Below are positions 7,026-60,997 of a DNA stretch of 64,000 bases, in pieces. The stretch lies in the IMG/VR virus record IMGVR_UViG_3300042885_001472; one strand, written 5' to 3'. Origin of the DNA: a virus (taxonomy: Duplodnaviria > Caudoviricetes). Position 1 is the stretch's first letter; the number at the start of each line of letters is the position of its first letter. A program made the translations under genes and the position numbers. The notes under the pieces were generated by a model. That model worked only from the letters and a program-made list of their open reading frames with translations. It was not told the origin of the DNA and did not search any database.

Positions 7026-7835
7026 ATGGTAAATAAAAAATTCATTAATGGTCAAGAAGATTCAATTTCAAATTACCTTAAGGATGTAAAAAAGTGTGGT
7101 GTTATTAACACTGACACTGAAGTTGAATTAGCTAAAAGAATACAAGAAGGTGATCAAGTTGCCGCTGATGAATTGGCTAAAGCTAATCTTAGATTTGTTA
7201 TATCAATCGCCAAAGAATATCAAAATCAGGGATTACCATTAGCGGATTTAATTTCAGAAGGTAATTACGGATTGATTATAGCGGCTCAACGATTTGACTA
7301 TACAAAAGGGTTTAAATTTATTTCTTACGCTGTATGGTGGATAAAACAATCTATTATGCAGTCACTAAACGAACATTCCAGAACTGTTCGGTTACCAACT
7401 AATGTTATCAATAAACTTTCTAAAATTAAGAAAGAGATAGATGCGTTTGAGCAAAAGTTTGAAAGAAAACCAGTATTAGGTGATGAAATTGAAATGGTAT
7501 TCCACCCAACAGTGATATCGTTAAGTACAACAATAAATGATGATGGTGATGAGTTAATTGAAGTTATTGAAGATCCTAACATTAATAGTCCGGACAATGA
7601 TCCATATAATGAGTACGACATTAAAGAACGTATGAATAAAATTCTATCAATTCTTTCTGAAAGGGAGAAAAATGTGATTGAGTTATATTATGGTATAAAT
7701 GGATCACCTTTAACATTGGAAGAAATTGGTGAGGAATATGATTTAACTAAAGAAAGAATTCGTCAAATTAAAGAAAAATGTATCAGAAAACTTAGAAATA
7801 ATGCTGATGTCTTACAACAACAATTATTTGGATAA
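7026..7835 (+). CDS. RNA polymerase sigma-70 family factor (RpoD/RpoS-like)
   Basis: Region 2 ANLRFVISIAKEY, DLISEGN, FISYAVWWIKQ; region 4 HTH TLEEIG..LTKERIRQI. Confidence 0.95.
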   Translation: MVNKKFINGQEDSISNYLKDVKKCGVINTDTEVELAKRIQEGDQVAADELAKANLRFVISIAKEYQNQGLPLADLISEGNYGLIIAAQRFDYTKGFKFISYAVWWIKQSIMQSLNEHSRTVRLPTNVINKLSKIKKEIDAFEQKFERKPVLGDEIEMVFHPTVISLSTTINDDGDELIEVIEDPNINSPDNDPYNEYDIKERMNKILSILSEREKNVIELYYGINGSPLTLEEIGEEYDLTKERIRQIKEKCIRKLRNNADVLQQQLFG

Positions 7836-8665: not shown

Positions 8666-8965
8666 ATGAAAACTAAACAAGAAATAGAAAAGTTAGCTGA
8701 GCAATATTTACAAAAAAATAAACATAATTTTGATACTTGGAAAGAGATAGAACATGTTAAAATTAGTTATATAGATGCTTACACTCAATGCCAAGAAGAT
8801 GTAGATTGGGAATTATTAGTGAAGTTGATTAAAAGGTATACAGAAGAAGATTTACTTCACGCTTTTAGAGAAGGAGTTTTATTACCTAACTCACAAATTG
8901 GTATAATGGAAGATATATTTAAACAAGTAGTTCAATCACTAAACAAACAAGACAATGAAAACTAA
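8666..8965 (+). CDS. MKTKEEIEQLAE-family paralog 1
   Basis: Shared modules MKTK.EIE.LAE, YTQCQED and SLNKQD. Confidence 0.75.
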   Translation: MKTKQEIEKLAEQYLQKNKHNFDTWKEIEHVKISYIDAYTQCQEDVDWELLVKLIKRYTEEDLLHAFREGVLLPNSQIGIMEDIFKQVVQSLNKQDNEN

Positions 8966-9612: not shown

Positions 9613-10497
9613 ATGACCAGTAAAGAAGTAATGGATGCAGCATTTAATTTAGCTAATAATAAACAAAAGACAATGAAAAACATACACATATTGCCAACGG
9701 ATAAACCAAGTATATTACATTTATATACTGATGAAAATGGCACAAGACTTGAAACTTTTGAAGTAGAATATTCACACACAAGAGATACTCAACACATCTA
9801 CATCACTTCTGATGAAGAAATTAAAGATGGAGATTGGTATTTAGACACCTTTAATAATCAAAGAATTAAAGCTAATGAATTTTCAGACCATAAACATTAC
9901 GGAAATGCTTGTAAAAAAATCATCCTAACAACAGACCAAGACTTAATTACAGATGGTGTTCAAGCTATTGATGATAAGTTTTTAGAATGGTTTGTAAATA
10001 ACAGTAGTTGTGAAAGTGTTGAGGTTGTAAAAGACGGTTTAAAAGTTAAAGAGGGAGGTATTCAAGAACTAATGGAAGATGAGTATTATCAAAAATTCCC
10101 AGAAGAGCTTCCAAACTGCGTTTTTATTGATAAATATGAAATCATCATTCCACAAGAAGAACCTAAACAAGAAACACTTGAAGAAGTTCAATTAGCTATT
10201 TTATTTCATAATACTTATGAGAATTTAGCACCAAATTTTGGTTATGAAACAAGAGCAGATACAAAATCATTTGAAACTACTACTCCAAATGGAATGTTAA
10301 TGATTGCTGTTTGTAAAGAAATAATTAAATGGCAACAAGAAAGAAGTTATAGTGAGGAAGAAGTAAAAGAAATAATTAAACTTTCTTGTGAAAAAGGTAT
10401 GCTGATTCAAAGAACTATAAATGATAAAGTTAAAATTCCATATACAAGAATAAAAGACTTTACGATTAAAATGTTGGAACAATTTAAAAAGAAATAG
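9613..10497 (+). CDS. hypothetical mosaic phage protein
   Basis: 294-aa ORF. Confidence 0.75.
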   Translation: MTSKEVMDAAFNLANNKQKTMKNIHILPTDKPSILHLYTDENGTRLETFEVEYSHTRDTQHIYITSDEEIKDGDWYLDTFNNQRIKANEFSDHKHYGNACKKIILTTDQDLITDGVQAIDDKFLEWFVNNSSCESVEVVKDGLKVKEGGIQELMEDEYYQKFPEELPNCVFIDKYEIIIPQEEPKQETLEEVQLAILFHNTYENLAPNFGYETRADTKSFETTTPNGMLMIAVCKEIIKWQQERSYSEEEVKEIIKLSCEKGMLIQRTINDKVKIPYTRIKDFTIKMLEQFKKK

Positions 10498-11088: not shown

Positions 11089-11682
11089 ATGGCAAAATTT
11101 ATTGAAACAATTTATCCAACTATTGAAGATAGAGTAAGTAGATGGGAAACAATGGGAATGTTACATATAGTTAAATCTGATGATTCTAAAAAATTGGTGG
11201 CGATGGCACTTGATGCAACTGCAATATATCTTACAGAATTTAATTTTAAAAATTTTGATAACGATACAAAAACGGTTTTAATACCAGTAATTGTAAGAAT
11301 TTTCAACGAAACAAACAAAGATTTCACATTAGAAACATTAACTAAATCAGTTAGAAGAATAATTGAAGATTTTGTGGAAAAATATGAAGAAGCAAAACCT
11401 AAGTTTAACCCATTAACTTCCGAAAGAGATGATGATGCTGAATTTATTGCGTTATATTGCGAAAACTATTCTTTTGATGAAAACAAAATTAAAATTAAAT
11501 TTAAAATTACATTTTGGAAAGATATTCCAGAAAGAACATTTATAATTGATGATACCAACTTCTTTCCAAAATATTTTATGGGGTTGGATGGTATTTTATA
11601 TGAAAATTATGGAACAGAGGAAAAACCAATGTGGGAAAATGTTTTTGATAGTGACTATGAGATTGAAATTGTTAATCTTTAA
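11089..11682 (+). CDS. hypothetical cassette protein
   Basis: Unit 10923-11753. Confidence 0.75.
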   Translation: MAKFIETIYPTIEDRVSRWETMGMLHIVKSDDSKKLVAMALDATAIYLTEFNFKNFDNDTKTVLIPVIVRIFNETNKDFTLETLTKSVRRIIEDFVEKYEEAKPKFNPLTSERDDDAEFIALYCENYSFDENKIKIKFKITFWKDIPERTFIIDDTNFFPKYFMGLDGILYENYGTEEKPMWENVFDSDYEIEIVNL

Positions 11683-12701: not shown

Positions 12702-12846
12702 CGTAGTATTGGTTATAACGTTTTGCAGCTTTAAGAAGTGGCTGCCTAACGGAAAGTTCAAAGTTCGCACAATGTTTATGGCAGCTTTTGCCAAACCGCT
12801 GTTATGTGCTGGGCGGATTATCAGTACTAATTTTAATTTAAAAACG

Positions 12847-13059
12847 ATGTACAAAGCATTTCAAAACAAAAAGTATTATTTGGCGTTTAACCGATTTCCT
12901 AAAACTGCCAAAAAAGTAGGGGGTGTGCATAAAGCATATTCAACAGGATTTAGAAAATGGAATTCTGATGATATGATTACCTACGCAATAGTTGTCGGCA
13001 CATTCAGGATTATGTTTGGAATTAAAACGCCAAATTATACTTGTGATGAAGGATGTTAG
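12847..13059 (+). CDS. hypothetical cassette protein
   Basis: ATG 12847 (MYKAFQ) in unit 12801-13072; the track start at 12709 is probably an over-extension. Confidence 0.6.
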   Translation: MYKAFQNKKYYLAFNRFPKTAKKVGGVHKAYSTGFRKWNSDDMITYAIVVGTFRIMFGIKTPNYTCDEGC

Positions 13060-13129
13060 CCTTGCACATAACGCTTTGCAGCTTTGAGCCGTTTACCAAA
13101 TATTAATAACAAAAAAATAAATAACGAAT

Positions 13130-13309
13130 ATGCCAAAAACAATACATGCAAAAAGAGAAGATTTAATTTGCGGAAAAATAGACTTAGCACAAGATATGGC
13201 TATTAAATTAAAAAGTATCGAATTACTTGAATTATTAGATAGTATCAGATATGATGCTGTAAGAATGGAACAAAAACTTATTAGCAGAAAACAGGAATCA
13301 AAAATATAA
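13130..13309 (+). CDS. hypothetical protein (59 aa, not in the ORF track)
   Basis: MPKTIHAKRE...ESKI*. Same ACGAATATG start context as 4087 and 14703. Confidence 0.6.
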   Translation: MPKTIHAKREDLICGKIDLAQDMAIKLKSIELLELLDSIRYDAVRMEQKLISRKQESKI

Positions 13310-27271: not shown

Positions 27272-27351
27272 TTAAAAATTATTTATAAAATATTTGTTTT
27301 ATTAAAAATAATTTATTATATTTGCATCAGTCTAATTAAAACATCAAAGAT

Positions 27352-29421
27352 ATGAAAAATATAATTCAATTTAGAAATGGGTTTGTGAATCTACCTAAAA
27401 CATCTGAGAATAATTATACTCTCACGATGACTGTTGTTTCTGAATTGTTACAATTTGGATATATTTTAGATAGTTCGGCTATTGAAGGTTTATCAAAAGC
27501 TTCTAAGGAAGATATTATTTCATTCCATAATGAAGTTATTGATTGGTTAAAAATTATGACTGGTTCTAATAGAAACTACAAACCATTTTGGGGTGGGTTT
27601 CCGGAAGAAGTTATGGAAAAAACTGAATGTGAACTTTGGTTTCATCAAATTACTCATTACTTATTTCAAGGTTCTTATACCCCTTCAGAGTGGACTAAAG
27701 TTAGACCAACCGCGTTTGAACAACCAGAGTATACTAAAATCACTAGTAGTGATGAAGATAAATTTTTAAATATATTCACAGATCTTGTAAGTGTAAATCA
27801 GTCATTAACCCAAAGTGATTTGGAAATTGTTAAATGGTTTGTTAGTTCCGGACAAGAATTAAGATTTCCACAAACAATTCCGTTTAAAGAAAATCTTTGT
27901 ACGCTAGCTGCTATGGGTATTAAAGTACCGGTTAAAACTGTTACTGATGTATTAAGAATAGCTGTAAGTATGTCTAGTGGTGATATATCATTACCTAAAG
28001 TACCAGAAAAGTTAGTTAAATATAACTCTTGGAGTTCACATAAAGTTGAAAACACTCAAAGGGAAAACTTCAAATTTAAAAAGTTTACTCGTAAAGAACG
28101 TAGATTCTTGTTGGAACTTTTAGAACAAACTAATTGTGACGCGTCTGAAGCTGTATTAAAAAGCCAAAGATGGGTTAGATTAGGTGAGATGTTACACCCA
28201 GGTGAATATTCAACTAAATACCCAAAAGCGTACACTATGTTTAATACTATTAGAAACGAAAAAGTTTCTTCTTGGTATGGTAAAGTTGATAAATCTTTTA
28301 AAGAGTCATTTGATTCTGGTATAAATAAATTATCAGAAAGACCAGGTGAATTTGTTAGGAAATTAGATTGGTTAATTAGAACTAATGGTAATCAATCATC
28401 TAAAATTATTAATACTTTAAAGAATGTTTCTATGAAAGTATCTAATAAAGTTTTATTTGAAACATATGGTCACTTCTCAAAAAGAGTTGATGTTAAACAA
28501 AACAGAAATATATCTTTAAAAGGTGGCCGTAAAAGAATTACATTACCGGAGTTACAACCATTAAGTCATTACGCTGTTAATAGTGTTCAAAATACGATTA
28601 TTTCATCACTTAAAGATAAATTTTCAACTTTAGAACCTATGGGTAAAGTTTGGATTGATGAGGAACTTTCTAAGATACCTTTACCTTCTAATATGAGATC
28701 TTTAAACCCATCATTAAAACCTAGAGTTAGAGGTATTAGAACACCGATGGGTAATCAAAACTCTAAAGTGATTAGATCATTTGTTCATTGGTTTGATGAA
28801 AATGGTAATAAGGATATTGACTTAAGTGCGACATTCATTGGTATGGGTAAACATAAAATTATTTCTTGGGATAATTCACAAAATGAAGAAGAAGGATATT
28901 TCTCTGGGGACATTAGAAATAGACAAGGGGCTTGTGCTGAGTATATTGATATTAATGTAAAACAATCTTTAAAAAATGGTTTTAAATATGTTGTACTTGA
29001 CGTTAGAAACTTTAATGGTGGATCATTAGCCGATGTTACTGATTGTGTATTTGGGTGGATGGAAAGAGAGTTTCCGGTAGCTAATGAGATATTTGTACCA
29101 GCGACTTTGTCTAACACCATTAGATTAACGAATTCGGCTACTAATACTATTGTGGCGGTAATTGATTTAGAAACACAAGAATACATATTCTTAGACATTG
29201 ATCAGGATGGTATACCGGTGACTAGTTTTAATTATGAGGAGATACTTGAATCAATTAAAGAATACACTGAAAAATGTAAATTCTCTGTATACGATTTATT
29301 AATGTTACATATTCAAAGTAGAGGACAATTAGTAACTAATAAAGAAGATTCAGATAAAATGTTTACTTTTGATGAATTTAGTAGTAATTATATAGAAACT
29401 TTAAAATATATGGGAATTTAA
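27352..29421 (+). CDS. large helical protein with C-terminal TerD-like domain
   Basis: DIDLSATF, SGDIR, GACAEYIDI in the C-terminal third. Confidence 0.7.
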   Translation: MKNIIQFRNGFVNLPKTSENNYTLTMTVVSELLQFGYILDSSAIEGLSKASKEDIISFHNEVIDWLKIMTGSNRNYKPFWGGFPEEVMEKTECELWFHQITHYLFQGSYTPSEWTKVRPTAFEQPEYTKITSSDEDKFLNIFTDLVSVNQSLTQSDLEIVKWFVSSGQELRFPQTIPFKENLCTLAAMGIKVPVKTVTDVLRIAVSMSSGDISLPKVPEKLVKYNSWSSHKVENTQRENFKFKKFTRKERRFLLELLEQTNCDASEAVLKSQRWVRLGEMLHPGEYSTKYPKAYTMFNTIRNEKVSSWYGKVDKSFKESFDSGINKLSERPGEFVRKLDWLIRTNGNQSSKIINTLKNVSMKVSNKVLFETYGHFSKRVDVKQNRNISLKGGRKRITLPELQPLSHYAVNSVQNTIISSLKDKFSTLEPMGKVWIDEELSKIPLPSNMRSLNPSLKPRVRGIRTPMGNQNSKVIRSFVHWFDENGNKDIDLSATFIGMGKHKIISWDNSQNEEEGYFSGDIRNRQGACAEYIDINVKQSLKNGFKYVVLDVRNFNGGSLADVTDCVFGWMEREFPVANEIFVPATLSNTIRLTNSATNTIVAVIDLETQEYIFLDIDQDGIPVTSFNYEEILESIKEYTEKCKFSVYDLLMLHIQSRGQLVTNKEDSDKMFTFDEFSSNYIETLKYMGI

Positions 29422-36198: not shown

Positions 36199-36613
36199 GG
36201 GTCCGACATGGTTTTGACAGCTAAGTTGATGATTAGGTGTAAGCACGTAGTGAGATGTCAACTATCACTTAAATCTATGTTGGTAAAAAATAAATGCAAC
36301 AATCGTTAAAAACGAAGTCGGTACTTTAGCCGATGTCCTAATGGCTGAGAAATACAACCTATTAGGTGCTATCAAAGGAACAGAAGCTGAACTAGCCCTT
36401 TCTTAGTTATATCCGGAGAAGTATAGTAACCGGATCGCGTAAAACAGTAAACACTTATTGATACTGGGTGGATAAAATTAGGTCAACTATTTTGGTATTG
36501 TGATAGTAAATTCAAAACACCTTATTTGTCAGTTTATAAAAATTGAATAAACGTGTAGAAGACCAGTTATTAAGTAGTATGGACGAGGGGTTCGATTCCC
36601 TCCGGATCCACTA
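36199..36613 (+). ncRNA. ssrA: tmRNA
   Basis: 5' GGGTCCG pairs with 3' CGGATCC-A, including G3-U70. T arm GAGGGG-TTCGATT-CCCTC; TTTTGAC D-loop analogue; internal tag ORF 36296-36406. Confidence 0.9.
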
Positions 36614-55817: not shown

Positions 55818-56384
55818 TTATAGTACCTGATCAATGGGTTGAGTTCTCTTTTCAATTTGTTCTAAATTAAGTGATAATGGTGTATTACGATCAAAAACCT
55901 TAACAATAACGTCAACACTATTTTTTGAATGGTCAATTTTATCAATAAACCCATTAAATCCTTTAAAAGGTCCATCAGTAACAACAATACTCTCACCCAC
56001 GATTAGTAAGTTAACTGTTTCTTGACTCCCTTCAATATTACCAATAATACTATTTAATTCACTTTTTCTTAGGGGTAGTAATTTCTTATCCCCAGACTTA
56101 AGAAACCCAGATACGTATTTAACCATTTCAATTTCTTTAACCACATCCGGATTGGGTGAATCAGTTTTAAATTCAACCAACATATAACCTGGTAAAAGAT
56201 TTTTGGTCATTACGATTTTCTTACTATCCTTTATTTTAACCACTTTTTCTTGTGGGACTAAAACTTGACTAACGTATTTGTCAAAACCTTCAACCATTGT
56301 GATATGTTCTTTTATTTTATTCTCTTTAGCGTTGGCCACTCTTAGAGTGTACCAATTAGTTTTTTCATTTGAAATTGTACTCAT
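55818..56384 (-). CDS. nusG: transcription elongation/antitermination factor NusG
   Basis: WY.LRV, LLPGYMLVE, KOW domain V.DGPFKGFNG, VKVFDRNTP. Confidence 0.9.
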   Translation of the reverse strand: MSTISNEKTNWYTLRVANAKENKIKEHITMVEGFDKYVSQVLVPQEKVVKIKDSKKIVMTKNLLPGYMLVEFKTDSPNPDVVKEIEMVKYVSGFLKSGDKKLLPLRKSELNSIIGNIEGSQETVNLLIVGESIVVTDGPFKGFNGFIDKIDHSKNSVDVIVKVFDRNTPLSLNLEQIEKRTQPIDQVL

Positions 56385-56868: not shown

Positions 56869-56943
56869 TGATCCCGACAGGATTCCAACCTGTAACCCTT
56901 GTCTTAGAAGGACAATGCTCTGATGCGGTTGAGCTACGGGACC
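56869..56943 (-). tRNA. tRNA-Arg(TCT) with non-canonical elbow
   Basis: GGTCCCG/CGGGATC acceptor, GCTC/GAGC D stem, TTGTC-CTTCTAA-GACAA anticodon arm, T loop TTGGAAT. Confidence 0.85.
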
Positions 56944-57360
56944 AATATTTATGTATGTTGAGTACAAATGTAATGATTATTTTTAATAAAACAAATTTAT
57001 TTTTTAAAAAACAAGTAGTAGAAACTTAGAACCCCACCTTTTGGGGGTTACAGAGAACAGATATTTCTACCCCTAAGTTAATTTTATGTCTTGAAAACTA
57101 CTACTTGTTATTAAATCTACTTACAACTACCTCTACCATATTTCTATGAGTCACTGTCCTGATTGTAAGTTGTAGTCTTTAGAACTACTAGATTTAATGT
57201 GTTTACCTGTCACTCCAAGTGTGTGAATAATCTGTTATTACCATAATAGGGCCAGTCATTATCTATCCACAAACAACTCCCTCTTGGTGTGGGATATACA
57301 TCTTATATCTATCACTAGACAAATTCCACTGTATTTGTTTGCTTTTAGCGGGTAAATATT

Positions 57361-57503
57361 TGTGAGTACAAGTTATCTCCTCTTACTATGGGATACAAAT
57401 TATAGTGCTTGCGAGACCTTGTATCCTCTTACTCGGTAGTATAGTCAATCAGAGACCCCAGCTAGGATGTTTAGAGTCCAGCGGTGGCTTTACCTTGTAC
57501 TCA
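57361..57503 (-). ncRNA. unknown structured RNA, copy 1
   Basis: Three blocks identical to 58318-58483; closing stem TGAGTACAAG/CTTGTACTCA. Confidence 0.7.
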
Positions 57504-57506
57504 ATG

Positions 57507-57575
57507 TAGTCATAGCAGGACTTGAACCTGCATCATCCTAACCCAAGTTAGGGTTCTACATTGAGCTATATGACT
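57507..57575 (-). tRNA. tRNA-like element with 6-nt anticodon loop (Pro/Gln-like pseudo-tRNA)
   Basis: AGTCATA/TATGACT acceptor, GCAGG-TTCAAGT-CCTGC T arm, CCTAA-CTTGGG-TTAGG. Confidence 0.65.
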
Positions 57576-57605
57576 GTTTGCCTGTCTTTCCAGGCTGTCT
57601 GACTA

Positions 57606-57854
57606 CTATGCTATACCGTCATTCCATTTACCTTTATATAGTACTCCATCTACTCTGTCGTTAGCGCTATCATATGCAAACATGATATCAAAGTCCTTGC
57701 GATACCCAAGTGATATTAACTCTACGTAATCGTAGGCTTTTGCATCTATATATGCAGTACACCAGTGACCACAGGACATGAGGCTATGTGTAAACTTTAT
57801 CTTTTTAATCTTATGTTTTTTTGTGGATGTTTCCAATACTATTGTCTTTGTCAT
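57606..57854 (-). CDS. hypothetical protein
   Basis: ATG 57854 (MTKTIVLE); the GL-repeat extension in the track is a by-product of the repeat. Confidence 0.6.
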   Translation of the reverse strand: MTKTIVLETSTKKHKIKKIKFTHSLMSCGHWCTAYIDAKAYDYVELISLGYRKDFDIMFAYDSANDRVDGVLYKGKWNDGIA

Positions 57855-57882
57855 ATGTCCTTTGTTTTTAGTTGTTAATAAT

Positions 57883-58206
57883 TTATACAGACCAAGACCT
57901 AAACCCAGACCCAGACCAAGACTCAGACCAAGACCTAGACCAAGACCCAGACTCAGACCAAGACATAGACTCAGACCAAGACATAGATCCAGACCAAGAC
58001 CTAGACCTAGACCCAGACCTAGACCAAGACACAGAACAAGACCAAGACCAAGACCTAGACTCAGACCAAGACCTAGACCCAGACCAAGACCAAGACCTAG
58101 ACCCATACCCAGACCTAGACCAAGACTCAGACCAAGACCTAGACCAAGACCCAGACCTAGACCAAGACTCAGACCTAGATCTTTTTTGTTTTTTTCCTCT
58201 TATCAT
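57883..58206 (-). CDS. Ser-X dipeptide repeat protein (SR/SW/SG/SE)
   Basis: ATG after an A-rich leader; reads a 6-bp repeat. Confidence 0.55.
   Translation of the reverse strand: MIRGKKQKRSRSESWSRSGSWSRSWSESWSRSGYGSRSWSWSGSRSWSESRSWSWSCSVSWSRSGSRSRSWSGSMSWSESMSWSESGSWSRSWSESWSGSGFRSWSV
57888..58180. repeat. degenerate hexamer tandem repeat (AGACCN)n
   Basis: About 49 units. Confidence 0.95.
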
Positions 58207-58317
58207 TTCTATTTATTTTAAATTGTTAATGTGTTGAGGATGAGAAGTCCTTTGTGTTGTCTATTACTGCTGCGTCCCTAGGGAACCATTCCTTTCTCAA
58301 GGGAACAACACAATTTT

Positions 58318-58483
58318 GTGAGTACAAGTTATCTCCTCTTACTATTTAACAGTAGGTGGCTTCCTACATCTATTAACTCAGTTTTATTTCTTTGTGTTAA
58401 TAGTCAATCAGAGACCCCAGCTAGAGTTTATATAATTAAATAATCACCTAATTACACTCAGCGGTGGCTTTACCTTGTACTCA
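58318..58483 (-). ncRNA. unknown structured RNA, copy 2
   Basis: Same three conserved blocks as copy 1, with different inserts. Confidence 0.7.
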
Positions 58484-58567
58484 GTATTTTTAATTTCAAA
58501 GAACTAATTTTTTATAACATTAATTGTTTAACAAAAGTAAGTATTTTTTTTAAATATAACAAGTGTT

Positions 58568-58798
58568 TTATTTATAAATTTCAACAAACTTTGAATTAAC
58601 TGAATCATACTCTTCTTGTGTCATAGATATCCAAGCACTATAATCAAAAGTTGATGATTTAAAGGTATCAACTATCTGTCTCCCTTCAGTTTCATCTAAT
58701 AACACTAAGTTATCTTTCCACCTATAACTTTGTTGTAGAAACAATCTTTTGTTAGTTTTATGTTTCCAAACTTTTAAACCATGTTCATTTAGTTCCAT
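58568..58798 (-). CDS. hypothetical protein
   Basis: 76-aa ORF. Confidence 0.65.
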   Translation of the reverse strand: MELNEHGLKVWKHKTNKRLFLQQSYRWKDNLVLLDETEGRQIVDTFKSSTFDYSAWISMTQEEYDSVNSKFVEIYK

Positions 58799-58800
58799 AT

Positions 58801-59067
58801 TTATTGATCTTCTCCAAATTCGTTAACACACATTTCATATTCATCTTCTGTCAGTTCTATTAAGTTATGTGAATCAAAGTATCTATACATTCTTAAATCT
58901 TTACAGATATTGTCAAATTCACTTCCTTCACTACTATCAAAACCATCAGTCATAAAAACCTCATCAATGAATTTAATGTCATCGTATTCTATACCCCTCC
59001 TTTTACAATAGATATAACCAGATTCTAATATCATTAAGTTTTTATGACTTCTTTTTAACTTTCTCAT
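58801..59067 (-). CDS. hypothetical protein
   Basis: 88-aa ORF. Confidence 0.65.
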   Translation of the reverse strand: MRKLKRSHKNLMILESGYIYCKRRGIEYDDIKFIDEVFMTDGFDSSEGSEFDNICKDLRMYRYFDSHNLIELTEDEYEMCVNEFGEDQ

Positions 59068-59081
59068 ATTCTTTTTTTTTG

Positions 59082-59177
59082 TTGTTAGGACAAGATTCGA
59101 ACTTGTATAAGTGAACTAATCGTTTCTTAACCATCACATTCATTAGTGATGTACATATACCACTCTGTCACCTAACA
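59082..59177 (-). tRNA. class II (Leu-like) tRNA-like element with expanded anticodon loop
   Basis: TGTTAGG/CCTAACA acceptor, ACAAG-TTCGAAT-CTTGT T arm, CATCA-CTAATGAATG-TGATG, long variable arm. Confidence 0.6.
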
Positions 59178-59183
59178 ATGTTT

Positions 59184-59284
59184 AGGAAAGTAGAAGATGG
59201 GTGTGTGGACATCTACTTTTACGATTGGCATTACTTTGGCTTTTAACCCCCTCTCCCGCATGAGCAGTATTCCCCAATCAACCT
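59184..59284 (-). ncRNA. possible two-hairpin structured RNA
   Basis: Stems AAAGTAGA/TCTACTTT and GATTGG/CCAATC; GC-rich intergenic island. Confidence 0.35.
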
Positions 59285-59310
59285 ATTTTTTTAAAATAAT
59301 TATTTTTTTG

Positions 59311-59455
59311 TTTGAAGTAGGGGAGTCGAACCCCTCCAACAGGTCGATCCCTGTTTCCCATATTTAAAAGTAATTACTCCTTTATTTTTTGGTCTCATAC
59401 CCCAGTTAATGTACAATCCCTGGTGGTCAAAGCATTCCCACAAATGCTACTTCAA
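59311..59455 (-). ncRNA. 145-nt tRNA-like RNA with multi-hairpin insert
   Basis: TTGAAGT/ACTTCAA acceptor, CATT/AATG D stem, AGGGG-TTCGACT-CCCCT T arm. Confidence 0.6.
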
Positions 59456-59465
59456 ATTTTATTAT

Positions 59466-60719
59466 TTACTTTTTATTTTCTAATAATTTAACACCCAGTA
59501 TACTTTCTAACATTGAATTACCATTTCCACCGGAACTACCACCATTAAAATACGTAGCCGGTAAAGAGATCTTAGACATCGCTTCAGCTACACCAATCTT
59601 AGTCTTCATTTCAAAATCCGCTTTATCCCAAGGAGTTAAACCAGCAGATACTAATTTAGCGTTCGCATAAGCTTGAGCATCGGCATCAATTCTTGTTTTC
59701 TTAGCTTCCAATTCAGCGGCTTCAGCGGCAATCTTTTGTTTGAATTTATCTTGTTCAGCCAACTTAACAGTTGTTTCAGCTTTTACAACTTGTTGTGTTT
59801 GAATTTGTTTTTCTTTATATTCAGTTTCAACCAATTGTTTCTCACCCACGGCTTTAGCTGTTAACGCTTGTTGTTGAGCGGTAATGAATTGTTGTTTAGC
59901 GATAGAAGCGGCTGTGGCGGCATCAATTTTCTTACCCAACATAACATCAACACGAGATTCATAATCAACATCTGTGATATTGGCGTCAGCTACAGTGATA
60001 CCATATTCCTTAATGGATGAGTTCTTTCGTTTAGTTTCACCATTTTTATTGGTTACAATTTCAGTGACATAAACTTTCTTTTTCTCATTCTCTAACGAAT
60101 CAAATACTACCCGATCAGTTGTTTTTAAAATGAATACCCCATTTCTTAATTGATCACCAAAGTCTTGTGACATTGTGGAACGACCACCAGAGTAGTGCAT
60201 CTCAGATGACATCATTTGAGCTGATGATTGTAAACATTCTTTAGTATAAGGAGCTAATCGTTTAGATACTAATGATTGTGGTGTCTTATGGGCGTTGTGC
60301 ATAGCAATCATTTCAGATTCATCAGATGGTAGGATGTATTGAACAATACCACTAACACTCGCTGAAGTCGCATCAGCTCCGAAACGAATTATAACTCTAC
60401 CTATTTCAATAGTTCCATCATTTAAATCCATATTAGGAATAGTGTCTTGATAAGATACTGAGATCTGATTAGGCCATTGTGTAGTTCTAGCGAAGAATCC
60501 AGCGTAGTAAACTCCGGACTTATACTGAACGAATTGGTGACCGGTTGATTGTTGAACTACGGTTCTCTCACTGGAATCATTCCAAGAGAACGGATTAATA
60601 AAAAGGAAAACTATAATTCCTACTAACGATAATACTCCGATGATAATAAATTTTGTGATTGGATTTTGTTTCATTTGATTTTGGATTTGGTTATTAATTT
60701 GATTTTTTAAATTGTTCAT
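59466..60719 (-). CDS. SPFH/band-7 membrane protein
   Basis: N-terminal TM, SPFH-like core, A/Q/E coiled coil; start 60719 overlaps the upstream stop. Confidence 0.75.
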   Translation of the reverse strand: MNNLKNQINNQIQNQMKQNPITKFIIIGVLSLVGIIVFLFINPFSWNDSSERTVVQQSTGHQFVQYKSGVYYAGFFARTTQWPNQISVSYQDTIPNMDLNDGTIEIGRVIIRFGADATSASVSGIVQYILPSDESEMIAMHNAHKTPQSLVSKRLAPYTKECLQSSAQMMSSEMHYSGGRSTMSQDFGDQLRNGVFILKTTDRVVFDSLENEKKKVYVTEIVTNKNGETKRKNSSIKEYGITVADANITDVDYESRVDVMLGKKIDAATAASIAKQQFITAQQQALTAKAVGEKQLVETEYKEKQIQTQQVVKAETTVKLAEQDKFKQKIAAEAAELEAKKTRIDADAQAYANAKLVSAGLTPWDKADFEMKTKIGVAEAMSKISLPATYFNGGSSGGNGNSMLESILGVKLLENKK

Positions 60720-60997
60720 AAATTTTTGGTTTTTTCTTTTAATTGTTCTGTTATTTTTAATTGGTCTTTCCAATATGTTAAGTCTCTTTCAGCTCCCTCA
60801 ATACCACTTCTTTGGTTAATTTCACTTCGTAGAATTTTAATTTTGATATCATTGATTAAATTTTCAATGTCTTCGTGTGAAGTATTATTTGATGGTTCTT
60901 CTTTTTTTAATTGTAATGAACTCATTATTTTAATACCGGAATAAACCAATAGGATTATGAAACCAAGTATTATTAAAAAGATTAATGTTTTAAACAT
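60716..60997 (-). CDS. small membrane-anchored protein
   Basis: N-terminal TM; coupled to the SPFH gene. Confidence 0.7.
   Translation of the reverse strand: MFKTLIFLIILGFIILLVYSGIKIMSSLQLKKEEPSNNTSHEDIENLINDIKIKILRSEINQRSGIEGAERDLTYWKDQLKITEQLKEKTKNL

Follow-up and report, generated by a model that had tools for sequence, protein, structure and literature searches.

In the tRNA-miRNA units of the herpesvirus MHV68 and in MALAT1-mascRNA, a non-aminoacylated tRNA-like fold abuts another RNA, and tRNA-trimming enzymes separate both. These handles are eukaryotic and rely on Pol III or nuclear processing; we know of no bacterial counterpart. In plant mitochondria, t-elements (also described as tRNA punctuation) are tRNA-like folds at which RNase P and RNase Z act, thereby defining the 5' and 3' ends of neighboring RNAs (Forner et al. 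2007, PMC1920247). Here, we describe three tRNA look-alikes, designated el1, el2, and el3, from a virus (Duplodnaviria; Caudoviricetes) deposited as IMG/VR record IMGVR_UViG_3300042885_001472, of which a stretch of 64,000 nucleotides, in the following referred to as the window, was analyzed. The three elements lie within 2 kb on one strand beside a normal tRNA-Arg(TCT), and we tentatively read them as candidate processing signals of the t-element kind.

In common with t-elements (PMC1920247), el1-el3 are non-decoding tRNA-like folds at the borders of other genes. Differences exist in that t-elements are organellar and their cleavage has been demonstrated, whereas el1-el3 reside in a bacteriophage and we infer their cleavage; in addition, one of the neighbors is here an uncharacterized structured RNA, termed the three-way-junction (3WJ) RNA. 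In terms of build, el3 matches the species 1 RNA of phage T4 (rnaC, 139 nt). Of similar length and located at the border of a tRNA cluster, this RNA combines a terminal stem, long hairpins instead of D and anticodon arms, and the T arm CCGGG-UUCGAAU-CCCGG. However, there is no sequence similarity between the two, the terminal stem is interrupted in T4 and fully paired (7/7) in el3, and the function of rnaC is itself still unknown (PMC9697503).

Canonical tRNAs (RF00005) are the relevant comparison for el1 (tRNA-Pro(UGG)) and el2 (class II tRNAs), with which they share the cloverleaf, the T loop, and conserved bases of the U8/A14/G53-C61 type; in contrast to them, both lack a 7-nt anticodon loop and are given no isotype by ARAGORN. 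Among the bacterial Y RNAs, YrlA is permuted, its acceptor end is capped, and its termini lie in the Ro-binding stem. The acceptor ends of el1-el3, by comparison, are open. What both groups share is that they imitate the acceptor, T, and D arms of tRNAs without decoding; Y RNAs, too, occur in phages (PMC4201824). No match to the Y RNA model RF02553 was obtained at E <= 10, and no Ro60 family was present among the neighboring genes. Within the literature, no paper was found describing non-decoding tRNA look-alikes as transcript-cutting marks in phages.

Anatomy of the three look-alikes

The three tRNA-like RNAs, which a first-pass annotation made from the letters alone had placed at 57507-57575 (el1), 59082-59177 (el2), and 59311-59455 (el3), were confirmed on the minus strand at these coordinates. 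Their acceptor stems and T arms are perfect as described there, with 7/7 Watson-Crick pairs in the acceptor and 5/5 in the T stem of each element. The T loops (UUCAAGU, UUCGAAU, and UUCGACU across el1-el3) fit the UUCRANU consensus of canonical tRNAs, and the discriminator A73 is followed by C, the same as in the functional tRNA-Arg. Thus, all 24 paired top-half positions plus the T loop are without flaw in every element. A scan of the 64 kb for a T arm combined with a 7-bp acceptor returned exactly el1-el3, compared with a mean of 0.23 hits in 100 Markov shuffles, and the G+C content of the elements (34-42%) exceeds the 28% background of this phage DNA. Based on these data, el1-el3 are real, non-random tRNA-derived elements. 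An attP-type tRNA fragment was ruled out, both acceptor strands being present.

The lesions are confined to the anticodon region, which consists of a 6-nt loop in el1, an 8-10-nt loop in el2, and approximately 90 nt of hairpins in el3. In none of the three does a 5-bp stem close a 7-nt loop in which U33 and a purine at position 37 flank a 3-nt anticodon, so that each represents a tRNA-like fold without decoding capacity. The anticodon arms had initially been called broken throughout, a description that applies to el3, in which the arm is replaced, but not to el1 and el2, in which the stems are intact and loop length alone is wrong.

The 69-nt el1 is a look-alike of the tRNA-Pro(UGG) type, scoring 44.5 bits against the Rfam tRNA model (gathering threshold 29 bits) and reported by ARAGORN as "tRNA-???" with anticodon (tg). 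Its anticodon stem is fully paired (5/5, CCUAA/UUAGG) and carries the loop CUUGGG, confirming the predicted 6 nt, while the D stem has three of four pairs and the D loop is devoid of G18-G19. Its best matches are tRNA-Pro(UGG) genes with the loops CUUGGAG and UUUGGGA; since these loops hold one base more, el1 can be described as missing nucleotide 38.

The 96-nt el2 has a class II build with a long variable arm of ~25 nt, in agreement with the initial description. It reached 40.1 bits for RF00005 at the E-value threshold, which is likewise above the gathering threshold, and received the ARAGORN label "tRNA-???" (atga). Its anticodon stem is intact and can be drawn either as CAUCA/UGAUG with the 10-nt loop noted before or as 6 bp with an 8-nt loop (UAAUGAAU). 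The loop contains the 4-nt tandem repeat AAUG AAUG and offers no U33-anticodon-R37 register; the 8-nt version has A in the position of U33, which does not correspond to an expanded-loop frameshift suppressor.

The 145-nt el3 deviates most from a tRNA and gave no Rfam tRNA match. It consists of a 7-bp acceptor (UUGAAGU/ACUUCAA), a D hairpin with GG in the loop, three further hairpins accounting for the ~90-nt replacement that had been proposed, and a canonical T arm (AGGGG-UUCGACU-CCCCU) followed by A73 and C. Its minimum free energy of -43.8 kcal/mol corresponds to z = -3.5. The sole Rfam match covers 17 nt of the T arm and assigns them to tmRNA with 14 bits; as the ARAGORN tmRNA mode was empty in this region, el3 was rejected as a tmRNA, and the true tmRNA of the window is located at 36199-36613 (ARAGORN). 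As a side observation, el3 carries A8 and U14 (window 59455-59432) in place of the U8 and A14 of tRNAs, which may be a swap preserving the tertiary pair.

Recurrence beside the 3WJ RNA and turnover in related phages

Two copies of the 3WJ RNA are encoded on the minus strand of the window. Copy A (57363-57503) begins 3 nt past el1, the discriminator base being followed by CAU and then by the closing stem of the 3WJ RNA, while copy B (58319-58483) is without a tRNA-like element upstream and is preceded by the Bacteroidota-type -7 box TACTTTTG at 58539-58532. The family is defined by three invariant blocks and a closing stem that covaries between the window (GAGUACAAG/CUUGUACUC) and the only two places beyond it in which the family was found, namely the unrelated phage contigs L026 (GAGCACAAG/CUUGUGCUC) and L030 (CUAUCAAG/CUUGAUAG). 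No Rfam match was obtained at E <= 10, by which a known ribozyme or a T-box was rejected. In bacterial genomes, 101 matches to the 3WJ core compare with ~70 expected by chance; the four of them that also held a second motif represent a protein-coding gene and were judged not to be real.

In contig L030, the 3WJ RNA is bracketed by two tRNA-like elements, X at a distance of 3 nt and Y at a distance of 5 nt. Element X (12780-12863) has a good T arm and an acceptor of six Watson-Crick pairs and one G-U pair but is devoid of an anticodon loop, and its A73-CAA runs directly into the 3WJ stem. Element Y (13089-13156), beginning 5 nt past the 3WJ RNA, forms a perfect cloverleaf (Rfam tRNA 46.9 bits, z = -3.5), in which the "anticodon" loop is the tetraloop GUUA. 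Judged by its arrangement, X-3WJ-Y would constitute a full tRNA-RNA-tRNA release design, i.e., a natural version of the layout used by engineers for the release of guide RNAs. Further upstream in the same contig, ARAGORN gave an isotype to 13 tRNAs, one of which ("Met", 11605-11674) has a short loop of ~5 nt. Within 14389-14590 of L030, we additionally noticed a weak 72-nt tRNA match and a tRNA-like stretch of ~63 nt with a 7-bp acceptor (TAGGGTA/TACCCTA) and a T-like arm, lacking D and anticodon arms.

L026 is a complete 87-kb phage, whose single canonical tRNA lies ~6 kb away across the terminal repeat. Its 3WJ RNA is 82% identical to copy A and has, 111 nt downstream, a 102-nt tRNA-like element with long hairpins instead of the anticodon arm. 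Neither X and Y nor the L026 element shows sequence kinship to el1. Consequently, the position at the side of the 3WJ RNA appears to have been refilled by different tRNA-like elements, which points to a role for shape rather than sequence.

A second line of comparison was provided by the SPFH/band-7-like gene next to el3 (59466-60773, minus strand). It has more than a thousand homologues, and those in IMG/VR and JGI metagenomes yielded 25 loci. In many related contigs, a tRNA array starts right after the SPFH gene. The slot corresponding to el3 is occupied by tRNA-Met in L011, by tRNA-Asn followed by wrecked tRNA pieces in L005, by a tRNA-like element with perfect acceptor, D, and T arms and an unpaired anticodon arm in L003 and L004, and by an intrinsic terminator in L010. 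The occurrence of terminators, working tRNAs, look-alikes, and wrecks at one slot indicates its fast turnover. In parallel, the broken tRNA-like, the true tRNA, and the terminator are all devices forming RNA 3' ends. In the closest loci (L008-L010; 93-94% protein identity), the island carrying el1-el3 is missing, with a terminator and unrelated genes being present instead, and the nucleotide similarity breaks off at 59454, where el3 has its 5' edge. This edge (59454/59455) thereby doubles as a mosaic recombination boundary.

Proposed processing signals and competing explanations

With a probability of roughly 45%, we favor the reading that el1-el3 derive from tRNAs and serve RNase P and 3' trimming enzymes as processing signals, analogous to plant mitochondrial t-elements. 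RNase P accepts an acceptor/T-arm minihelix as minimal substrate and, like the 3' trimming enzymes and the CCA-adding enzyme, can do without the anticodon arm. The non-decoding elements would be retained for those features that are read by host maturation enzymes, i.e., the 12-bp stack of acceptor and T arm, the elbow of T loop and D loop, and the A73-C context at the 3' side. Embedded in long phage transcripts, they would be cut by RNase P at their 5' edge and by a 3' activity (RNase Z, or RNase E together with exonucleases) just past the discriminator base. These cuts would separate the units and set the ends of the SPFH mRNA (el3), the ORF88-ORF76 mRNA (el2), and the 3WJ RNA (el1), and the freed look-alikes may persist as stable by-products.

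The position of the elements favors this role, each bordering another transcribed unit: el3 starts 10 nt after the stop codon of the SPFH gene, el2 ends 14 nt before the ATG of ORF88, and el1 lies 3 nt before 3WJ-A. Furthermore, no -7 box of the Bacteroidota type was found in front of el1, el2, or el3, whereas 3WJ-B and tRNA-Arg have one each, which argues for elements that would be cut out of longer RNAs. Concerning el1, the stop codon of the upstream ORF83 is 30 nt away, with no promoter box in between. The flawless top halves, the lesions restricted to the anticodon region, the recurring partnership with the 3WJ family in L030 and L026, and the 3'-end-forming occupants of the el3 slot in relatives count in favor of this reading as well.

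Phage "tRNA-???" or pseudo-tRNA calls are usually thrown out as junk. If they acted as cutting signals, they would show how large phages organize and mature long transcripts by means of host tRNA enzymes. The termini of new phage RNAs, among them the 3WJ RNA, could then be placed exactly, and the persistence of such elements would be explained. Punctuation of phage mRNAs by bacterial RNase P and RNase Z as well as the role of the 3WJ RNA would become directly testable. Such signals would extend an already known kind of element to phages.

Several points weigh against processing signals. No orthologue of el1, el2, or el3 turned up in blastn, pattern, or synteny searches: with the whole region or the single elements as blastn queries, 50,697 phage records returned only generic T-arm or tRNA-Pro matches, exact and gapped patterns for the three elements found nothing in IMG/VR, none of the related SPFH loci carries them, and the NusG-like neighbor used as query gave no related loci. 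A single indel separates each of el1 and el2 from a normal tRNA, and both may be genes that broke recently. The region represents a hotspot of tRNA turnover with clearly decayed fragments in relatives (L005), and the intact top halves are partly a matter of ascertainment, as elements with decayed top halves would go unrecognized. The pairing of tRNA-like element and 3WJ RNA is not obligatory, since a tRNA-like element is missing upstream of both 3WJ-B and the L026 copy. Finally, no structure was detected in the 133-nt el3-el2 spacer (z = +0.4), by which a structured RNA was rejected, and the spacer represents no obvious released product.

An unlikely competitor is a function in trans, in which el1-el3 would be stable released RNAs occupying proteins that bind the top half, the elbow, or the CCA end of tRNAs, e.g., toxins targeting the acceptor end, the CCA-adding enzyme, or EF-Tu. 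The anatomy fits such mimics in terms of the intact top half, the A73-C context, and the elevated G+C content; this phage, with a tmRNA in the window, invests heavily in RNA biology, and T4 rnaC is a precedent of a similarly built stable RNA. Nevertheless, no gene for a binding partner is linked, the small neighboring ORFs being without family, and the tight abutment to other units would be left unexplained. The first-pass annotation had suggested decoys for anticodon nucleases. This is improbable, because these nucleases read the anticodon loop and a decoy should keep exactly the part that is destroyed here. The sponges for synthetases or EF-Tu and the aminoacyl donors that it also named found no support in this analysis.

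That el1-el3 are decaying, functionless tRNA pseudogenes in a hotspot of fast tRNA turnover is plausible for el1 and el2 but implausible for el3, and we consider it doubtful as a common explanation. In line with decay, the el1 loop equals a tRNA-Pro(UGG) loop less one U, the tandem repeat lies within the el2 loop, gains, losses, and evident wrecks are seen at this slot in relatives, and the whole island is absent from the 93-94% relatives. On the other hand, not a single mismatch is found in the 24 paired top-half positions per element within a genome of 28% G+C, and a random lesion would hit the 7-nt loop of a 76-nt gene in only ~9% of cases each time. Moreover, el3 has been rebuilt over ~90 nt, which implies too many events for a top half left perfect by chance, and the same class of defect recurs beside the same 3WJ family in unrelated phages. 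The earlier claim that the upper half is under selection finds partial support insofar as the anticodon-only lesions, the rebuilt middle of el3 without any top-half mismatch, and the non-homologous look-alikes beside the 3WJ RNA in two other phages do not look like ordinary scattered decay; the functions attached to that claim are not supported.

Somewhat further from being convincing is the idea that the tRNA look-alikes and the 3WJ RNA form two halves of one phage RNA device, giving their adjacency a meaning beyond a cutting signal. In this case, the 3WJ RNA might act on or dock with a tRNA-shaped partner as an elbow binder, ribozyme, or scaffold, or the pair might be a particle diverting host proteins that handle tRNAs or tRNA-targeting defense proteins.

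We regard it as very unlikely that the elements are unusual decoders, with el1 as a short-loop tRNA, el2 as an expanded-loop tRNA for quadruplet decoding or frameshifting, and el3 as a class II tRNA(UUA) interrupted by 58 nt of an "enigmatic" phage-type intron. Phage tRNAs containing introns have been reported (PMC6784885), and the intron mode of ARAGORN indeed assigned a 58-nt intron to el3, called as tRNA-Stop(tta), and a 3-nt insert to el2, called as Ile(aat). Yet an intron call was also obtained for 59 of 200 el3 versions with shuffled middle, rendering that of el3 uninformative, and its intron solution leaves a weak anticodon stem of just two Watson-Crick pairs and a U-U mismatch. Intron-bearing tRNAs are thus improbable for el3 and el2, and for a group I intron the 58-nt insert is too short. 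As the standard code leaves the long ORFs unbroken, there is no need for TAA recoding. The 8-nt loop of el2, with A instead of U at position 33, and element L030-Y, which has a tetraloop and cannot decode, also speak against unusual decoders. Assembly or sequencing indels in normal tRNA genes are extremely improbable: they could apply to el1, whose loop is one U short of normal within a U run, and to el2, but not to el3, and the long ORFs, unbroken across the window, indicate that such errors are rare.

Layout of the RNA island and further observations

The RNA island is encoded on the minus strand and starts with the SPFH-like gene, followed by el3, the 133-nt spacer, el2, ORF88 (88 aa, 58801-59067), and ORF76. 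It continues with the promoter box, 3WJ-B, a region of hexamer repeats with ORF83 (83 aa, 57606-57857), el1, and 3WJ-A. After this, approximately 250 nt of non-coding sequence end in a terminator-like hairpin (57004-57115) composed of a 12-bp closing stem, an inner G/C hairpin, and a U run (inverted repeat I13), which is likely the terminator of the el1/3WJ-A transcription unit. Two promoter boxes (56999-56992 and 56972-56965) then precede the canonical tRNA-Arg(TCT) (56869-56943), the sole decoding tRNA of the cluster, and small ORFs and a NusG-like gene complete the order.

The hexamer-repeat region (57880-58200) comprises ~320 bp of a degenerate GGTCTN repeat (minus strand) between the two 3WJ copies. 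Two minus-strand frames are open across it, and one of them continues into the 83-aa ORF. The gene of the NusG/KOW family (55818-56384, minus strand; Pfam NusG 1.8e-16), labeled "transcription antiterminator" in PHROG, is situated directly downstream of the RNA island and may help transcription to pass through the highly structured RNA cluster. In addition, an identical 21-nt block was observed at 56976-56996 (minus strand) and 27292-27312 (plus strand). The first copy overlaps the 3' part of the TAAATTTG -7 box upstream of tRNA-Arg, the second precedes a 689-aa gene at 27352, and the block is probably a common phage promoter.

Two further observations concern related loci. The distant relative L007 encodes two class II tRNAs (8714-8799 and 9816-9901), conserved as the same genes in L021, L022, and L024, with normal 7-nt loops and anticodons of the Glu type (UUC) and the Gln type (UUG), so that shape and anticodon are mismatched; one has U1-A72 and the other G1-U72, with A73 in both. 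These could be mis-assigning or recoding tRNAs. In the 78% relative L011, an insert seems to interrupt the DNA polymerase-like gene that lies downstream of the tRNA slot (7100-7290); the insert resembles a structured, intron-like segment with a GIY-YIG-like ORF behind it.

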